A program made the position numbers and the translations under genes. Shown piece by piece: positions 239-34,382 of a stretch of 36,679 bases of DNA. The first letter of the stretch is position 1. Every line of letters starts with the position of its first letter. Under the pieces are notes generated by a model. The model was given only the letters and a program-made list of their open reading frames with translations. It had not been told where the DNA came from and did not search any database. The stretch comes from a virus (Duplodnaviria; Heunggongvirae; Uroviricota; Caudoviricetes): IMG/VR virus record IMGVR_UViG_2579778919_000010; one strand, written 5' to 3'.

Positions 239-793
239 TTATATGTCAGATGCTGGGAATCGTTTGTACAGAGTTGAGATTCCGACGTCATAAATTAGGG
301 CCACCCTCTGACGAGTTTCGCCAGCCGCTAACAATCTTCCAGCCTGCGCCCACTGTTCAGGTGTTAACTTAGGTCTTCGACCTCCCACGCGCCCCTCAGC
401 TCGCGCAGCAGCCAGACCTGCACGTGTACGTTCAACAATCAGTTCACGTTCCATCTCGGCCAATGCCCCCATAACATGAAAAAAGAAGCGCCCCATTGGC
501 GATGAAGTATCTATGCTGTCAGTCAGACTTTTAAAGTTGATACCTCGCTCGCGTAGTTCTTCCACCAGTCCAACCAGATGACGCATGCTGCGTCCGAGGC
601 GATCAAGCTTCCAGACCACGAGGGTGTCACCTTCAGATAGCGTTCTGAGTACCCGTTTTAGTCCGGGTCTGTCTGAGGTTCTGCCGCTTATCTTGTCTTC
701 AAAAATCAGCTCACATCCTGCACATTCCAGCGCATTACGCTGTAATGCCGTGTTCTGGTCATTTGTTGATACACGTACATAGCCAATAAGCAT
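239..793 (-). CDS. gin: Serine DNA invertase, Gin/Pin/Hin/Cin family
   Basis: Translation from MLIGYVRVSTNDQNT... with catalytic-serine motif YVRVS, GDTLVVWKLDRLGRS and C-terminal HTH (ALIYDVGISTLYKR). ORF track begins 12 codons upstream at 829; the conserved N-terminus argues for 793. Confidence 0.93.
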   Translation of the reverse strand: MLIGYVRVSTNDQNTALQRNALECAGCELIFEDKISGRTSDRPGLKRVLRTLSEGDTLVVWKLDRLGRSMRHLVGLVEELRERGINFKSLTDSIDTSSPMGRFFFHVMGALAEMERELIVERTRAGLAAARAEGRVGGRRPKLTPEQWAQAGRLLAAGETRQRVALIYDVGISTLYKRFPASDI

Positions 794-847
794 GGTTAAA
801 CTCACTTTAAATGGCGGGAATAATGCCATTTGAGCGACTAACGATCA

Positions 848-873
848 TTATCGAAAACGTTGGTTTAATTGGT
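848..873. repeat. gix/hix-like invertase crossover site A, next to gin
   Basis: TTATCGAAAACG-TT-GGTTTAATTGGT: left half matches the hix/gix half-site TTATCAAAAACC in 10 of 12 positions; about 55 bp upstream of the gin start; inverted relative to site B. Confidence 0.6.
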
Positions 874-1446
874 AAATCAAATCGTCGTAATCGTAGACCG
901 GCATCTGATGAACTGGACATGCTCATTGAAGGTCTTCAACAACGATCTACACATAAATGCTCAAAAATTCCGTTCGTTGATATCCTCAAATTTTCTGTGT
1001 GGTCATGTATGCGAATCGGTGAAGTATGCCGATTACGATGGGAGGATCTCGATCAGGAACAAAAATCCATACTCGTAAGAGACAGGAAAGATCCACGTAA
1101 AAAGGAAGGCAACCATATGAAAGTAGCCTTGCTTGGGGAAGCCTGGGATATCGTCCAACGACAACCCAAAAAATCAGAATTCATTTTTCCATATAACAGC
1201 ACTTCTGTTACTGCGGGATTCCAGAGGGTAAGAAGCAAATTAGGTATTAAAGATCTGCGATACCATGATTTGCGTAGAGAAGGGGCAAGTCGCTTATTTG
1301 AGGCTGGTTTTAGTATTGAGGAAGTCGCCCAGGTTACAGGGCATCGTTCATTAAACGTGCTATGGCAGGTATATACCGAACTGTATCCGAAATCTTTACA
1401 TAATCGTTTTGAAGAGCTCCAAAGGAGCAGAAATAAGACCTCTTGA
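862..1446 (+). pseudogene. Tyrosine recombinase catalytic-domain remnant (no N-terminal domain, no own start) in the alternate arm of the invertible segment
   Basis: MRIGEVCRLRWEDLD (box I-like), DLRYHDLRREGASRLFEAGFSIEEVAQVTGHRS (box II-like) and a conserved Y in LWQVYTELY. The ORF-track N-terminus 811-861 lies outside the segment over the gin promoter/site A and is discounted. Confidence 0.55.
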
Positions 1447-1507
1447 CACTGTTTATCCATACAGTTAAAAATAATACTGTATACAACCACAGTATAGAGG
1501 GACTTTT
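1443..1507 (+). promoter_or_regulatory. LexA-regulated promoter: -35 TTGACA, -10-like TAAAAA(T), two SOS boxes
   Basis: TTGACA at 1443-1448; CTGT-N8-ACAG at 1449-1464 (cactgtttatccatacagtt) and at 1477-1492 (tactgtatacaaccacagta); AGAGGGA Shine-Dalgarno before the ATG at 1508. Confidence 0.7.
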
Positions 1508-2038
1508 ATGCGTATTGAAATCTGCATAGCCAAAGAAAAAATGACTAAAATGCCAACCGGTGCTGTGGATGCGTTAAAGGAAGAATTAACCCGACGCATC
1601 AGTAAACGTTATGACGATGTAGAGGTGATCGTAAAAGCCACCAGCAACGATGGCCTTTCTGTTACACGCACCGCAGATAAGGATTCTGCAAAAACTTTTG
1701 TTCAGGAGACTCTGAAAGATACCTGGGAATCTGCTGACGAGTGGTTTGTTCAGAGTCGGTTCTTACTGCATCCTTTTCACTGGGGATTGATGGGCCCAAG
1801 CGTGGATCACTCACGCGTCAGTGAGTGGAGCGCGTGTCTCAATAATGACCTGGAGCGTTTTGTCGATATTTTGGAGAGTCAGATTGAGCTCAGTAAGAGC
1901 CGCAATGAGTGGAAGGAGGTTATCTCCGCCGCCACCATAGCCAATGCCTCCACAGCTCTGGATTGGGGGATGGTTCACGAGGTTGCCGCCGCCACTTACC
2001 CGCAGGCACCCGGCACATACTGGTGGATTAACTGTTAA
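1508..2038 (+). CDS. DinI-like protein with an unusual ~95-residue C-terminal extension
   Basis: First ~81 residues [31 protein letters not shown]...[15 protein letters not shown] resemble E. coli DinI; ORF runs on to 176 aa with no stop where DinI normally ends. Confidence 0.7.
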
Positions 2039-2197
2039 CATAATTACCTCTCAAATTTAAATTGGGCAGAGATGCCAGCATCCAGGCTCGCGCCTGGACG
2101 ATTGTCTGATGATGAAAAGTGCAGTTTAATCTGTGGCTGGATTATCTGGATGCACTGGAGCTGGTTGATACCTCCAGTGCGCCAGATATTGAATGGC

Positions 2198-2590
2198 CTA
2201 CTCCTCCGGCAGTTCAGGCCAGATGACATCCGGTGCGGTGCTGGTATCTGTTGCCGTCACAGCGTCGATATAATCCAGCACAGCGTTAAGTCGGGTTGTT
2301 TCTGCCTGCGTCAACTTCCGTCCGGCCTGTAATTTCAGTTGAATCAGACTAATGGAAGCCATAGCTGCATCAATCAGCGACTGGCGCTGTGCTTCTGCCT
2401 CACGAAGTAATTCATCATGTGTTTTTGGCGGCTGCATAGGTGACGAAAGCTTTCCCTTATCATAGAACCAACCAATTCTTACATTATCGGATACAGGTAT
2501 AACTAACGCATTAGTTGGTTGCCAGGCACTCTCACCATCCCATACAGCAATATTGGTAACAACACCATTTTCTATAACGGCATAGTTCAT
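2198..2590 (-). CDS. U: Tail fibre assembly protein (U/Tfa-like)
   Basis: MNYAVIENGVVTNIAVWDG... N-terminus typical of Tfa chaperones; its start overlaps the fibre stop (TGATG); directly downstream of the fibre gene. Confidence 0.8.
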   Translation of the reverse strand: MNYAVIENGVVTNIAVWDGESAWQPTNALVIPVSDNVRIGWFYDKGKLSSPMQPPKTHDELLREAEAQRQSLIDAAMASISLIQLKLQAGRKLTQAETTRLNAVLDYIDAVTATDTSTAPDVIWPELPEE

Positions 2591-3558
2591 CACGCATACT
2601 CCCAAATGATTGCAATACCAGCCATTCCTCTACCTCCGGCACGCTGCTGCGTCGTTCCACCGTAGACACAGGCACCACTGCCTCCACCACCATGGCCATT
2701 AGCATTAATACCTTCGCCTACAATGGCTTGTGACCCAGCCCCCGCACCAAGGATTGAATCGCCGCCAGGCCCCCCCATCGCCAGACTGCCGGAATACCGA
2801 ACGCCTGGTGAGCTATAACCGCTTCCAGACACGATAATATTGGCACCTGTAAATCCCGGCTCAGTATATGCTCCATACGGACCAACAACCCCAGGAACAG
2901 TGCCTTCAGCAAGAACATTCCCACCAAGACCACCTTTGGCAATTATGGTATTGCCGAAAGAGGTTGCTCCCCCGGGAGCACCAACCGACGCACTTGCACC
3001 AGTGCCACCATATCCTATTGTCACAGTAGTTACGGTTGGATTATCCACGCGAGCTTTAACATACTCCCCGGACATCCCCCCGCCACCACAAGCAGCATTA
3101 TTGGGATAACCGACCTGACAACCACCACCGGCCCCACCACCACCAACAATTTCAACAATAATAAATCTTGTGCCTTTTGTCGGAGTGTATGTACCTGAGC
3201 TTTTAAACACCTGACACTGTATAAGCCTCCCGGAGCCATCTCCCAAACCAAGGTTTGTGAGAGCCGCCGCGATTGCTGCCGCACCATCTGCTTTAATGTC
3301 GCCAAATGGATTGGAACGACTCAGAAACAGTTTTTTGAGAGCGACCAGAATCTGCGTGTTGTCCATTTTGTCAGGATCAATCCCAGCGGCCTTGAGAATA
3401 TTGAGCAGCTCGCTTTGAATGACATTAAACCAGTCCGGTCCGGGATACGTCGGAGGAACGCCATTACCTCCTTCAGTAAAGAAAAGCTCGGTCTCACTGG
3501 TGACAGGAGACGGTTGTGGCATAACCGGAACACCGGTTGAATTATCTACGTGAAACAT
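2590..3558 (-). CDS. S: Tail fibre protein (S-like); residues ~1-103 constant, ~104-322 inside the invertible segment
   Basis: 322 aa with glycine-rich C-terminal region (GGGGAGGG, GYGGTGAS); follows the DUF2313-like gene; crossover site B is encoded at codons 100-105 (LTNLGL). Confidence 0.8.
   Translation of the reverse strand: MFHVDNSTGVPVMPQPSPVTSETELFFTEGGNGVPPTYPGPDWFNVIQSELLNILKAAGIDPDKMDNTQILVALKKLFLSRSNPFGDIKADGAAAIAAALTNLGLGDGSGRLIQCQVFKSSGTYTPTKGTRFIIVEIVGGGGAGGGCQVGYPNNAACGGGGMSGEYVKARVDNPTVTTVTIGYGGTGASASVGAPGGATSFGNTIIAKGGLGGNVLAEGTVPGVVGPYGAYTEPGFTGANIIVSGSGYSSPGVRYSGSLAMGGPGGDSILGAGAGSQAIVGEGINANGHGGGGSGACVYGGTTQQRAGGRGMAGIAIIWEYA
3238..3263. repeat. gix/hix-like crossover site B, inside the tail-fibre gene
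   Basis: ATCTCCCAAACC-AA-GGTTTGTGAGAG; core AAACCAAGGTTT matches hixL (AAAACCAAGGTTTTT); its reverse complement aligns with site A (AAAC[G/C]TTGGTTT). Confidence 0.6.
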
Positions 3559-4148: not shown

Positions 4149-5209
4149 GTCAGCACTCCGATAGTGATAAGTTCATTCTGAGCACAGGGAATGTCAGCGG
4201 TCAGATTCAGCGTGTAATCCGTCACGCCAGATGCGGTGCCGATAGCAGTGCGAATCGCTGAAATGGGCAGCGTTTGTCCTGGTTGCAGCGTCTTCTGAAG
4301 CGTCAACAGGCGGGACTGGACAGCTTTACGCGTGGCCGGTGTATCCGGTGTTATGCCAATAATCATATTGACGGGACGGAGCACCAGTTCCACGGGCCAG
4401 ACTTCTATTCCTCCAGGTTTACCAACCCATACGCCAGTCGCCGGGTCGGTATGACGGAAAAGGTAATCTTCCATATTTTTCCGGTCCTGATATCCGGGGG
4501 TAATCACTGAACGATCGTCATAAACCCATGCCAGTCCGATTGTGCAGGGACCATGCCAGGCATCAAATGCCCACGCCCGACTGACACCAGCCATTTCTCG
4601 CGCCCAGATGACATAGTCATGCACAGCCCCACCAACGGGGGGATTGCGTTTACGGAATAAAAGCCGGTCAAGCAATTCAGAAACTGGCTCAATATCCGAA
4701 CCACCGATGATGCCTCCCGTACCCGTTAAACCAATACTTTCCACGCCGGGAACGGGGGACAGCAGGGTCAGGCTTTCACCTTCCGGAAGGTTTCCTGACG
4801 CGCCGGCATCGCTGGCCTGAATGGTTACAGTCATGACCCCATCTACAGGAACGCCGGAAGTCGTCACGGCATAAACAATACCGGTAGCGGTTTGCATCTC
4901 CATATCTTCCGGCAGCGGTGTATTCCCTTTAAATACCGCCGGCCCCGTAGCAAACGTGGCCTGTTTTCTGACGACGCCTTCGCTGGCCGCAGTCTCAATG
5001 ATGGTTTCATCATCAGATTTAACAGACGGAATAATCTGGTCTTTAATCCAGCTCTGATGGTCGTATAAATCACGAACCTGATTGCTGAATGAGGTATTTA
5101 GAGCTTTCTCAACGCCTACTGGCGGAAGTTTTTGCAGCCCCAGTTCAAAGGCAATATCTTTTTCGCCGTCAGTAATAAGCTTGCGCAGCGCGGGAACGTT
5201 ATAAGGCAT
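4133..5209 (-). CDS. Baseplate J-like protein (Mu gp47 / W)
   Basis: 358 aa, conserved position in the Mu tail module. Confidence 0.8.
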   Translation of the reverse strand: MPYNVPALRKLITDGEKDIAFELGLQKLPPVGVEKALNTSFSNQVRDLYDHQSWIKDQIIPSVKSDDETIIETAASEGVVRKQATFATGPAVFKGNTPLPEDMEMQTATGIVYAVTTSGVPVDGVMTVTIQASDAGASGNLPEGESLTLLSPVPGVESIGLTGTGGIIGGSDIEPVSELLDRLLFRKRNPPVGGAVHDYVIWAREMAGVSRAWAFDAWHGPCTIGLAWVYDDRSVITPGYQDRKNMEDYLFRHTDPATGVWVGKPGGIEVWPVELVLRPVNMIIGITPDTPATRKAVQSRLLTLQKTLQPGQTLPISAIRTAIGTASGVTDYTLNLTADIPCAQNELITIGVLTWPTV

Positions 5210-33064: not shown

Positions 33065-33069
33065 CTGGG
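33065..33069. repeat. Target-site duplication CTGGG, copy next to the prophage left (L) end
   Basis: Identical to 169-173; follows CA at 33063-33064. Confidence 0.6.
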
Positions 33070-33832: not shown

Positions 33833-34382
33833 TTTCACCGGAAGCAATACTCCTGCCGAACATCGCGACAGCTGGCGCACACCACCAGAGATTTTTGCTG
33901 CGCTTAATGCAGAGTTCGTTTTTCAACTTGATGCTGCCGCCAGCGAAAAAAACCGACTATGTCGGCTTTTTATCTCACAGGAGCAGAACACATTAACCAC
34001 TTCATGGCCTGAAGCAATGGGATATGCCTCTGGTTATGTCTGGTTGAATCCACCATACAGCAATATTTCCCCTTTTGTGAAAAAGGCAGCCACTGAAAAC
34101 AAATTCAGTAGTGTGGGATGTGTAATGTTATTGCCTGCTGACACATCTGTCGGATGGTTTCATGAAGCGATACAAACCGCCAGTGAGGTCAGATTCATCA
34201 CGGCAGGACGACTGGCATTTATTAACCCACTCACTGAGAAACCCGTCAGTGGAAATAATAAAGGCTCGATGCTCATTATCTGGCACCCATACCCCCGTAC
34301 ACACTGCCACTTTACGACCGTTGATCGTGGAGAGTTGATGGCGTTCGGCTCAAGGATTCTTGCCCGTCGGGAGGCTGCATGA
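33825..34382 (+). CDS. Phage-type DNA N6-adenine methyltransferase (Dam family)
   Basis: WRTPPEIF...LDAAAS...VWLNPPYS (NPPY motif IV)...LLPADTSVGWF; 185 aa. Confidence 0.8.
   Translation: MTDFTGSNTPAEHRDSWRTPPEIFAALNAEFVFQLDAAASEKNRLCRLFISQEQNTLTTSWPEAMGYASGYVWLNPPYSNISPFVKKAATENKFSSVGCVMLLPADTSVGWFHEAIQTASEVRFITAGRLAFINPLTEKPVSGNNKGSMLIIWHPYPRTHCHFTTVDRGELMAFGSRILARREAA

Follow-up and report, generated by a model that had tools for sequence, protein, structure and literature searches.

An open reading frame of 176 aa (1508..2038) in an E. coli prophage begins with a complete DinI domain and runs on for about 94 residues past the normal DinI end (after V81), out of keeping with a family of single-domain proteins of about 80 aa. 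A preliminary description of the locus had noted both the extension and an SOS-type promoter upstream, raising the question of whether the protein is a long DinI variant, a new architecture, or an accident of rearrangement. The window analyzed here is the whole 36,679-nucleotide stretch of IMG/VR record IMGVR_UViG_2579778919_000010, in which a Mu-like prophage occupies 174-33064. Very probably, a known LexA-repressed dinI-like phage gene has been fused, by a strain-specific rearrangement, to a fragment of another gene.

A dinI-like phage gene with a LexA-type promoter

The fusion ORF and its upstream region comprise the following features:

855..1446, + strand: 3′ fragment of a tyrosine integrase gene (codons ~170-365), without the native start codon
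1443..1472, + strand: sigma-70-type promoter, with −35 TTGACA at 1443-1448, an 18-nt spacer and −10 AAAAAT at 1467-1472
1447..1466, between −35 and −10: predicted LexA box 1, CACTGTTTATCCATACAGTT
1475..1494, just 3′ of −10: predicted LexA box 2, TACTGTATACAACCACAGTA
1496-1502, + strand: ribosome-binding site AGAGGGA, 5′ of the fusion ORF
1508..1752, + strand: DinI-like portion of the fusion ORF, from codon 1 to the second base of codon 82
1753..2038, + strand: 3′ half of a ClpP-like prophage gene, fused in frame and running from the last base of codon 89 through codon 183 to the stop

The identity of the N-terminal part is supported by several profile and structure comparisons. Pfam DinI (PF06183) matches residues 16-80 over its entire length (profile positions 1-63 of 63) with 68.6 bits, against a cut-off of 24.2, and PHROG 189, “RecA filament binding protein DinI”, matches residues 1-82 (3e-30). 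The same 82 residues align end to end with residues 1-80 of E. coli DinI (PDB 1GHH). Judged from its sequence, this part is a phage-borne paralogue of the chromosomal gene, because it scores 71 bits against the NCBIfam equivalog for chromosomal E. coli dinI (NF007893), below the cut-off of 111.

The promoter agrees with the consensus at 10 of 12 positions, and the site is also annotated as a promoter in phage mEp460. The two LexA boxes that had been described as overlapping it are present: the window contains just two matches to CTGT-N8-ACAG, at 1449-1464 and 1477-1492, compared with an average of 0.45 in shuffled sequence. Scoring against a LexA matrix, a check that the preliminary description had called for, bears them out. 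With a 20-mer matrix made from 28 known E. coli SOS boxes, boxes 1 and 2 reach 21.8 and 19.9 bits, against a leave-one-out median of 19.7 bits for the 28 themselves; the best of 50 window shuffles reaches 16.3 bits. On this measure, both predicted LexA boxes are as strong as real SOS boxes of E. coli. Box 1 fills the spacer between −35 and −10 and is identical in H10407, CX04 and mEp460; box 2 begins 3 nt past the −10, and its native copies (TACTGTATACAAACACAGTA) score 22.8 bits. Chromosomal E. coli dinI has one LexA box. A third LexA-like site (34091-34110, 15 bits), inside a methyltransferase coding sequence of a neighboring prophage, was judged a chance match. Together with the Pfam match, the promoter and boxes uphold the earlier view of a dinI-like gene under a putative LexA-type operator and promoter. 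The dinI unit has a predicted promoter of its own; the only predicted terminator lies at 2230-2244, with none between 2038 and the stop of the tail-fibre assembly gene U.

All of these elements are inherited from a known phage module. The upstream ORF (811..1446), previously described as a recombinase remnant, retains the 3′-terminal 57% of a tyrosine integrase gene (Pfam Phage_integrase, 2.6e-21) from a dusA-integrating/mEp460-type phage, and its TGA stop (1444-1446) does sit within the −35 hexamer. The integrase fragment is 99.8% identical to H10407 (L001:3457-4047), and the same identity to the int-dinI module of these phages extends over 855-1752. In the native module, the unit lies directly 3′ of the integrase gene: the −35 overlies the int stop, two SOS boxes span the promoter spacer and the region of the transcription start, and a ribosome-binding site and an 82-aa ORF follow, such that the same promoter and boxes precede an 82-aa DinI-like protein. 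The module is present in ~1,800 complete E. coli genomes, where the 82-aa genes have 99.7% DNA identity to 1508..1752. Every homologue with this promoter stops at 82 aa (in EWFVH), which contradicts the suggestion that the extension is a conserved feature of a DinI subfamily.

The extension is the 3′ half of a ClpP-like gene

A three-way DNA comparison places the end of the dinI sequence at 1752/1753, beyond which the ORF continues as codons 90-183 of a ClpP-like prophage gene that encodes 183 aa. The junction reads TTCA/GAGT; the two parents have zero bases in common there, with no microhomology. The reading frames of both parents are kept, with dinI codon 81/82 joined to clp codon 90. The clp segment matches the WP_016244976.1 genes of 25 E. 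coli genomes at 99.8% identity, the encoded tail has 99% identity to residues 90-183 of that family, and the window is ~100% identical to ClpP-like loci from 1753 to ~2290.

The tail retains His95 and has lost Ser72, which aligns with the ClpP nucleophile in the parent and lies upstream of the junction, so the fusion has no Ser-His pair. While the 183-aa parent scores 49.6 bits against Pfam CLP_protease (PF00574), a search with the extension alone gives no match to that model at E<=1. PHROG 94 matches residues 83-166 of the fusion protein (5e-5), and the tail aligns with residues 89-170 of PpClpP1 (PDB 9UXT), an enzyme whose serine nucleophile is indispensable (PMC12900304). Structure prediction for the chimera (mean pLDDT 52, pTM 0.36) used a shallow, partly misaligned alignment and is too poor to judge the tail; in this model the DinI part has the expected topology at pLDDT ~60-70 and the tail is mostly below 50. 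A role in defense was considered and rejected, since a PADLOC search with the ClpP-like parent is empty and one with the chimera gives a match at noise level only (E 0.018).

A hybrid crossover site at the edge of the foreign DNA

The fusion lies inside the pix-bounded invertible segment of the Mu-like prophage (862-3249). The segment and its surroundings contain the following elements:

239..793, − strand: pin-type serine DNA invertase gene, encoding 184 aa when started at the ATG at 793 (ORF extendable to an ATG at 829)
848..873, + strand: hybrid crossover site pixR, TTATCGAAAACG TT GGTTTAATTGGT, with core TT
2090..2226, + strand: U′ remnant (alternative tail-fibre assembly gene), a pseudogene in the collinear loci L002, L015 and L016
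2198..2590, − strand: tail-fibre assembly gene U
2590..3558, − strand: tail-fibre gene S, 322 aa, glycine-rich, with a variable part at 2590-3249 and a constant part at 3250-3558
3238..3263, + strand: intact crossover site pixL, ATCTCCCAAACC AA GGTTTGTGAGAG, with its core inverted relative to pixR

The placement of the module within an invertase-bounded segment, as first described, is confirmed by the two sites that flank it: a degenerate pix pattern matches the whole window only at 848-873 and 3238-3263, as inverted 26-bp sites with the same central dinucleotide (TT/AA). The pin gene (Pfam Resolvase, 7e-51, plus HTH_7) is intact and adjoins the segment. U matches Pfam Caudo_TAP (8.5e-22) and is 99-100% identical to its counterpart in locus L006; S matches Gly_rich_2, and its closest relative changes at pixL. 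In place of two alternative fibre C-termini with their assembly genes, only Sv and U are left. The other side of the segment holds int′, dinI::clp′ and the 137-bp U′ remnant, whose ORF (2119..2226) ends ...LDYLDALELVDTSSAPDIEWP.

ClpP-like genes recurrently take the place of the alternative fibre allele within invertible segments, a replacement that may merit more attention than the fusion itself.

The segment and its flanks are a mosaic. Positions 174-866 are 100% identical to the region of invertase WP_016239587.1 in Mu-like prophages of E. coli ECONIH4 and CAVP776, a type that carries canonical G segments, and the same two genomes are 100% and 99.9% identical to the window from 3239 and 3233 onward, respectively. 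Between them, 2200-3250 has 99-100% identity to VREC0864. The pin-proximal site combines the pin-side half and core of a normal pix site (TTATCGAAAACG TT GGTTTGGGAGAA) with an inner half from the integrase gene: GGTTTAATTGGT stands where related prophages have GGTTTGGGAGAA, departing from the half-site consensus. It had been proposed that inversion would change the orientation of the module relative to outside transcription; this is doubtful because the pin-proximal site lacks the conserved outer part of the inner half-site.

The left crossover falls within TTGGTTT (860-866), since the pin parent (L003) matches the window to 866 and the int parent (L001) matches it from 855; the corresponding quasi-site in the H10407 int gene is ...CTACTTAAACTTGGTTTAATTGGT.... 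A hybrid pin-proximal site with an integrase-derived inner half suggests, at the level of sequence, that Pin recombined at a quasi-site. Consistent with this, the breakpoint interval holds the 2-bp core that Din-family invertases cut, with TT in both parents, and the other edge of the foreign DNA falls exactly at pixL. Quasi-site recombination that depends on the central dinucleotide has been documented for Cin (Iida and Hiestand-Nauer 1987, as cited in PMC4134206). A genuine possibility, somewhat short of probable, is that the left junction arose by microhomology-mediated illegitimate recombination that fell within pix by chance. The int site resembles pix only in TTGGTTT (the core plus GGTTT), its outer positions being off consensus, and the parents share 7 nt; moreover, the right junction is clearly not site-specific. 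For that right junction, at 1752/1753, a Pin origin was rejected, since there is no shared dinucleotide and neither parent has a pix-like sequence centered there.

The most economical history compatible with these breakpoints would have two steps. A deletion of ~1.2 kb in a donor with the order int-dinI-pin-pixR-clp-U′-U-Sv would have taken out pin and pixR along with the 5′ half of clp, with the dinI stop codon lost at the blunt, non-homologous junction. The donor segment would then have been exchanged into the Mu-like prophage, with crossovers at pixL and at the quasi-site TTGGTTT in int, a step probably catalyzed by Pin. Donor-type arrangements exist: in locus L010, dinI converges on pin, followed by pixR and clp, while L011 and L013 have the order pin, pixR, clp, U, Sv, pixL, and the pin-pixR sequence is identical between H10407 and L013. 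The clp partner is a recurrent cargo of invertible segments of this kind. The exact donor, with an H10407-type dinI beside the 99.8% clp allele, was not found among complete E. coli genomes and phage records; in the complete genomes that carry this allele, only a truncated pin adjoins clp.

The fusion is confined to one assembly

The exact 176-aa protein occurs in a single assembly, GCA_000482045.1 (E. coli SCD1), a draft from 2013. Among 5.8 billion proteins, none covers both halves or more than 53% of the chimera, and 30-mers of both junctions have no matches in the genome, metagenome and viral collections. With no match spanning both halves, a conserved long DinI subfamily was rejected; other long DinI-like entries are unrelated singletons, among them duplications, frameshifts and contig ends.

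Confinement to one 2013 draft, in a region composed of prophage modules that recur within E. coli genomes, would fit a contig that is itself chimeric, assembled from reads of a dusA-type, a ClpP-carrying and a Mu-like prophage of the same strain. This is very unlikely: assemblers join sequences at repeats of k-mer length, whereas the parents share just 7 nt and 0 nt at the two junctions, and the breakpoints are biologically meaningful, one in the core of a crossover site and the other at an in-frame codon boundary.

Predicted behavior of the fusion gene

If the promoter behaves as its sequence predicts, LexA would keep it shut, and DNA damage would release transcription through RecA-stimulated cleavage of LexA. 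In the Gifsy phages, experiments have established that LexA controls the prophage dinI homologues, which mitomycin C induces through a LexA box (PMC3121763). The product would be a 176-aa protein whose N-terminal 81 residues form an intact DinI domain, presumably a RecA-filament binder. The 94-residue tail, half a ClpP fold without its nucleophile, most likely has no activity of its own and may destabilize the fusion protein.

Could the 176-aa protein nevertheless be a new, functional architecture favored by selection, in which the ClpP-derived module anchors DinI to rings of the ClpP family or changes how it acts on RecA? The joined frame stays open through 94 codons, nothing in the promoter, operator, ribosome-binding site or DinI domain has been disturbed, and natural DinI-domain fusions exist, as in Tum of phage 186, whose second half is DinI-like (PMC3121763). 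We nonetheless consider selection very unlikely. The protein is a singleton in each collection searched, and an in-frame outcome is expected by chance in one of three events. The tail lacks Ser72 and half of the ClpP fold, and alone it fails the Pfam model. Moreover, its 99.8% identity to the parent gene indicates a very recent event, with no divergence on which selection could be tested.

A stronger version of this idea, to which we attach hardly any probability, is that the fusion is damage-induced and bifunctional, with the DinI domain on RecA filaments and the ClpP handle and C-terminal half on a host ClpP or prophage ClpP-like ring, and that the hybrid pix site may still recombine. Were it true, filament modulation would be coupled to proteolysis, or the ClpP ring poisoned; a flipped SOS promoter would read toward pin, the fibre gene would become an Sc-Int′ fusion, and fibre production and invertase expression would depend on orientation and DNA damage.

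Loss of the dinI stop by point mutation or frameshift, the alternative raised in the preliminary description and the kind of event that accounts for several longer DinI-like database singletons, has a negligible probability, being rejected by the three-way DNA alignment: the native flank (...GTTCAC TAA TTAACACG) is absent, and the DNA from 1753 onward is the interior of a ClpP-like gene. That description had also held that homologues all ending at about 81 aa, together with a single-base change here, would overturn its reading. The homologues do end early, at 82 aa, but a recombination junction stands in place of the base change, so the objection applies in spirit.

The 176-aa ORF is a scar left by a one-off rearrangement and does not represent a novel type of protein. 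In annotation, the “hypothetical protein” ESA27718.1 should be labeled a DinI-like::ClpP′ fusion instead of being given a family of its own. Its main value is as a clean, datable example of prophage mosaic formation, in which an invertase appears to have used a quasi-site in the integrase gene of another phage and a blunt deletion gave an in-frame chimeric ORF. For SOS biology, nothing is gained over the phage dinI homologues already known to be under LexA control.

Comparison with known systems

The closest relative is the dinI-like gene of mEp460 and dusA-integrating prophages (WP_001217553.1 in ETEC H10407), with 97-99.8% DNA identity from the 3′ end of int through codon 81 and with the −35 overlap with the int stop, both LexA boxes and the ribosome-binding site in common. 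The native gene encodes 82 aa, lies outside the invertible segment and is convergent with pin, whereas the SCD1 fusion lies inside the segment, without the dinI stop and with 94 foreign residues. E. coli DinI (81 aa, PDB 1GHH/7YWA), an SOS-induced RecA-filament binder, shares the aligned acidic C-terminal helix and an upstream LexA box; the fusion differs in its two LexA boxes and its C-terminal ClpP-like tail.

There are parallels with the dinI-antirepressor operons of the Gifsy phages, where prophage dinI homologues are directly repressed by LexA, and with Tum of coliphage 186, a precedent for DinI fusions that joins an antirepressor to a DinI-like half (PMC3121763). One difference is that the partner in Gifsy and 186 is an antirepressor needed for induction, in a conserved arrangement, while the partner in SCD1 is a truncated ClpP-like fragment in a unique arrangement within a Mu-like prophage. 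The stand-alone 183-aa ClpP paralogues of the WP_016244976.1 family, for which PpClpP1 (PDB 9UXT) is the nearest solved structure, differ from the tail in retaining residues 1-89, including the serine nucleophile.

The segment itself resembles the G/Gin segment of Mu, the C/Cin segment of P1 and the P/Pin segment of e14 in having an intact serine invertase beside inverted 26-bp sites with AA/TT cores in a fibre gene. In contrast to these Din-family segments, the SCD1 segment has lost the alternative fibre allele, with int′, dinI::clp′ and the U′ remnant in its place; the conserved GGGAGAA is missing from the inner half of pixR; and a flip would yield an Sc-Int′ fusion instead of a fibre. The hybrid structure of pixR is as expected after quasi-site exchange of the kind described for Cin (PMC4134206).

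An SOS-type promoter and a dinI-like gene shared with intact phages

The preliminary description placed two LexA boxes over a TTGACA/−10 promoter ahead of a DinI-like ORF with a long extension, and the −35 element over the stop codon of a recombinase remnant. All of these features are present:

811-1446, + strand: 636-nt ORF with a tyrosine-integrase catalytic domain (Pfam Phage_integrase, 2.6e-21), stop codon TGA at 1444-1446
1443-1448: perfect −35 element TTGACA, containing that stop codon
1449-1464: LexA box 1, 21.8 bits
1467-1472: −10 element AAAAAT, 18-nt spacer from the −35 element
1477-1492: LexA box 2, 19.9 bits
1496-1502, + strand: ribosome-binding site AGAGGGA
1508-2038, + strand: ORF of 176 aa, starting at ATG 1508

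The promoter matches the consensus at 10 of 12 positions, and the two boxes are the only CTGT-N8-ACAG matches in the 36,679-bp window (shuffle mean, 0.45). Boxes were scored with a symmetric weight matrix made from 28 E. coli SOS boxes known from published compilations, which gives approximate values. Both exceed the leave-one-out median of the known boxes (19.7 bits; range 7.8-27.2; n = 28) and the top score in shuffled windows (16.3 bits; n = 50). A third LexA-like 20-mer, CACTGAAAACAAATTCAGTA at 34091-34110, scores 15.0 bits, slightly under the shuffle maximum; it sits in a phage N-6-adenine-methyltransferase gene of the neighbouring prophage and is probably a chance match.

Pfam DinI matches residues 16-80 of the 176-aa product (68.6 bits; cut-off, 24.2), while E. 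coli DinI (PDB 1GHH) aligns over its full length, acidic C-terminal helix included, to residues 1-82, the same span as PHROG 189, “RecA filament binding protein DinI”. The NCBIfam model for the chromosomal dinI equivalog gives 71 bits, below the 111 required. The unit is assigned by sequence to the DinI-like family, as a phage paralogue distinct from the chromosomal equivalog. Because of the fusion described below, the protein departs from the size and single-domain character of that family.

Of 5,426 complete E. coli genomes searched by megablast with 1400-2100, 1,819 gave matches, confined to 1400-1752 and at most 99.7% identical; none of the 5,426 reached 80% coverage of the query. In ETEC H10407, the counterpart of 1400-1752 belongs to a prophage that has dusA as its insertion site: it takes in the 3′ end of the integrase gene and, after it, the gene for an 82-aa “DinI-like family protein” with the C-terminus ...ADEWFVH-stop. 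The same int-dinI module is found in phage mEp460, whose annotation includes the promoter, and in strain CX04, where a copy of the dusA phage forms a 37.7-kb circle. Both LexA boxes are conserved in all three copies; native box 2 (...CAAACACAG..., 22.8 bits) differs from the window copy at one base. The window shares its promoter, both operators, ribosome-binding site, start codon and 81 of the 82 DinI codons with a phage gene that is widespread and intact.

Fusion to the 3′ half of a ClpP-like gene

The preliminary description left two options for the extension, conservation or a lost stop codon. Neither holds: homologues with this promoter stop at 82 aa, and the DNA after 1752 is the in-frame interior of a ClpP-like gene. 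Positions 1753-2240 match a separate set of 25 genomes at 99.8%. There the stretch covers the 3′ part of a 183-aa gene labelled “ATP-dependent Clp protease proteolytic subunit” (WP_016244976.1) and then a tail-fibre-assembly pseudogene. Three-way alignment of the window (GTTTGTTCA/GAGTCGGTTC), the dinI parent (GTTTGTTCA/CTAATTAAC) and the clp parent (ACCCTGG/GAGTCGGTTC) puts the junction, marked by the slash, between 1752 and 1753, with no bases shared there between the two parents. Base 1753 stands third both in codon 82 of the window ORF and in clp codon 89, so both frames are kept, and the product consists of DinI residues 1-81, Gln82 and ClpP-like residues 90-183.

The parent of the tail matches Pfam CLP_protease (49.6 bits), and its nearest solved structure is PpClpP1 (PDB 9UXT, E 1e-37), an N-terminally truncated ClpP paralogue in which Ser and His are indispensable (PMC12900304). 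The ClpP nucleophile aligns with parent Ser72, upstream of the junction; the tail retains only His95, and by itself loses the match to the CLP_protease model.

Among 5.8 billion clustered proteins, DinI-like and ClpP-like matches came back as separate proteins; none spanned both halves, and coverage of the fusion never exceeded 53%. Other DinI-like entries longer than 82 aa were singletons of unrelated origin, reflecting internal duplications, frameshifts and contig ends. The exact 176-aa sequence occurs on one contig only (ATJZ01000037.1, GCA_000482045.1), annotated as “hypothetical protein L912_2014 [Escherichia coli SCD1]” and clustered with 82-aa proteins.

Position within the invertible segment of a Mu-like prophage

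The dinI-like unit lies, as the preliminary description had it, inside an invertible segment, between two crossover sites and within 862-3249:

174-33064: complete transposable Mu-like prophage, 32,891 bp, ends TG...CA
848-873: crossover site pixR, TTATCGAAAACG TT GGTTTAATTGGT
3238-3263: crossover site pixL, ATCTCCCAAACC AA GGTTTGTGAGAG, core inverted relative to pixR

These two sites are the only matches to a degenerate crossover-site pattern in the window. The prophage is flanked by the 5-bp target-site duplication CTGGG (169-173 and 33065-33069) and carries a 660-aa transposase ORF and Mu-type baseplate and tail genes. Its left flank adjoins cusS in E. coli SCD1; on the right-hand side, the flanking DNA has matches in an Rhs-annotated region and an intD lambdoid prophage.

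E. coli ECONIH4, CAVP776 and VREC0864 carry closely related prophages with the canonical order pin(−), pixR, S′v(+), U′(+), U(−), Sv(−), pixL, Sc, where pin encodes the invertase, Sc and Sv/S′v are the constant and variable parts of the tail-fibre gene, and U and U′ are assembly genes. All of 862-3249 differs from ECONIH4, and the flanks (174-866 and 3239 onward) are 100% identical to it. The interior is a three-source patchwork of an H10407-like integrase fragment (int′) and dinI (855-1752), a partial clp and U′ remnant resembling two collinear ClpP-like loci, L002 and L015 (1753-~2290), and VREC0864-like U-Sv (~2200-3250). The dinI unit occupies the usual place of the alternative fibre allele. 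At pixL (3233-3263) the mosaic boundary is sharp: the inner side is 99-100% identical to VREC0864, and outward this identity falls to 83-93% over the next 300 bp as that to ECONIH4 and CAVP776 rises to 100% and 99.9%. This pattern fits the exchange of a whole invertible cassette between prophages.

At the left joint, the pin parent matches to 866 and the int parent from 855 in a three-way comparison, and only TTGGTTT (860-866), which includes the central TT, is common to both. Din-family invertases exchange strands at the central TT. The inner half-site of pixR, GGTTTAATTGGT, is integrase-gene sequence; related prophages carry GGTTTGGGAGAA there. This hybrid has the structure expected from exchange between a pix site and a quasi-site with the same central dinucleotide, as described for Cin (Iida and Hiestand-Nauer 1987, as cited in PMC4134206, where the 26-bp crossover-site consensus can also be found). 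The architecture of the site suggests that Pin was probably involved. The seven shared bases could also have served for microhomology joining not involving Pin, a less likely origin. The right junction (1752/1753) is not site-specific. 30-mers over either junction had no match in collections of genomes, metagenomes and viral contigs.

Two further observations concern this site. The ORF at 811-1446 takes its ATG and first 17 codons from the pin-pix intergenic/S′v leader (811-866) and continues in frame into the integrase fragment, which makes it a second chimeric ORF in the present orientation, divergent from pin. Positions 4720-4741, inside the baseplate J gene, are 77% complementary to the hybrid pixR region (TACCCGTTAAACCAATACTTTC vs GAAAACGTTGGTTTAATTGGTA) and could be a further quasi-site or a chance match.

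Donor-type relatives and a proposed history

The ClpP-like gene is found in the invertible segments of three relatives with a donor-type arrangement, and its 3′ half in the window:

L010, 4715-6400
L011, 4310-5990
L013, 670-2355
window, 1753-2038

In L010 the order is dinI and pin, convergent, then pixR and clp. In L011 and L013 it is pin, pixR (ATATTTGAAAGG TT GGTTTGGGAGAG), clp, U′ remnant, U, glycine-rich Sv and pixL; L013 and the H10407 dusA phage share an identical pin-pixR sequence. In such a phage, loss of ~1.2 kb between the dinI stop codon and clp codon 89 would make the fusion and remove pin and pixR, and the leftover int′...Sv block could have entered the Mu-like prophage via exchange at pixL and the int quasi-site. 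This history is plausible as a whole, and deletion and exchange may have come in either order. The exact donor was not found; complete genomes with the 99.8% clp allele carry only a truncated pin beside clp.

The 183-aa gene (PF00574; nearest structure 9UXT) recurs in pix-bounded invertible segments of several enterobacterial prophages. Because it stands in for the alternative tail-fibre allele, the relatives' switches would toggle the fibre on and off, not change host range. PADLOC returned no match for it.

Predicted behaviour of the gene, protein and segment

From established SOS biology and by analogy with Gifsy phages, where mitomycin-C induction depends on a LexA box ahead of a dinI homologue (PMC3121763), LexA dimers on both boxes would occlude the promoter, and DNA damage would relieve this. 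By analogy with DinI, the N-terminal domain should act as a RecA-filament binder. The tail, 94 residues forming half an alpha/beta ClpP subunit that lacks the nucleophile, is expected either to be inert or to destabilise the protein. The alignment behind an AlphaFold model was shallow and in part misaligned; the model has a mean pLDDT of 52, recovering the DinI topology at ~60-70 with the tail mostly below 50, and gives no guidance on the tail.

Inversion is predicted to join 103 constant S codons in frame to 194 Int′ codons, yielding a 297-aa Sc-Int′ chimera (862-1446 joined to 3250-3558, − strand). If the segment still inverts, the fibre would lack its receptor-binding part, and the SOS promoter would be turned to the same direction as late transcription. 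Inversion has probably become rare or been lost, since the hybrid pixR lacks conserved outer half-site bases.

Comparison with known systems

The locus is real and ordinary in function, very probably an SOS-regulated phage gene of known type that was rearranged recently and in one strain only. More likely to be of use elsewhere are the quasi-site hybrid pix and the ClpP-like cargo that recurs in invertible fibre segments. The unit resembles the LexA-controlled dinI homologues of Gifsy prophages. Its likeness to Tum of phage 186, a natural DinI fusion (PMC3121763), is superficial: here the partner is a bystander gene cut short, and only one strain has the arrangement.
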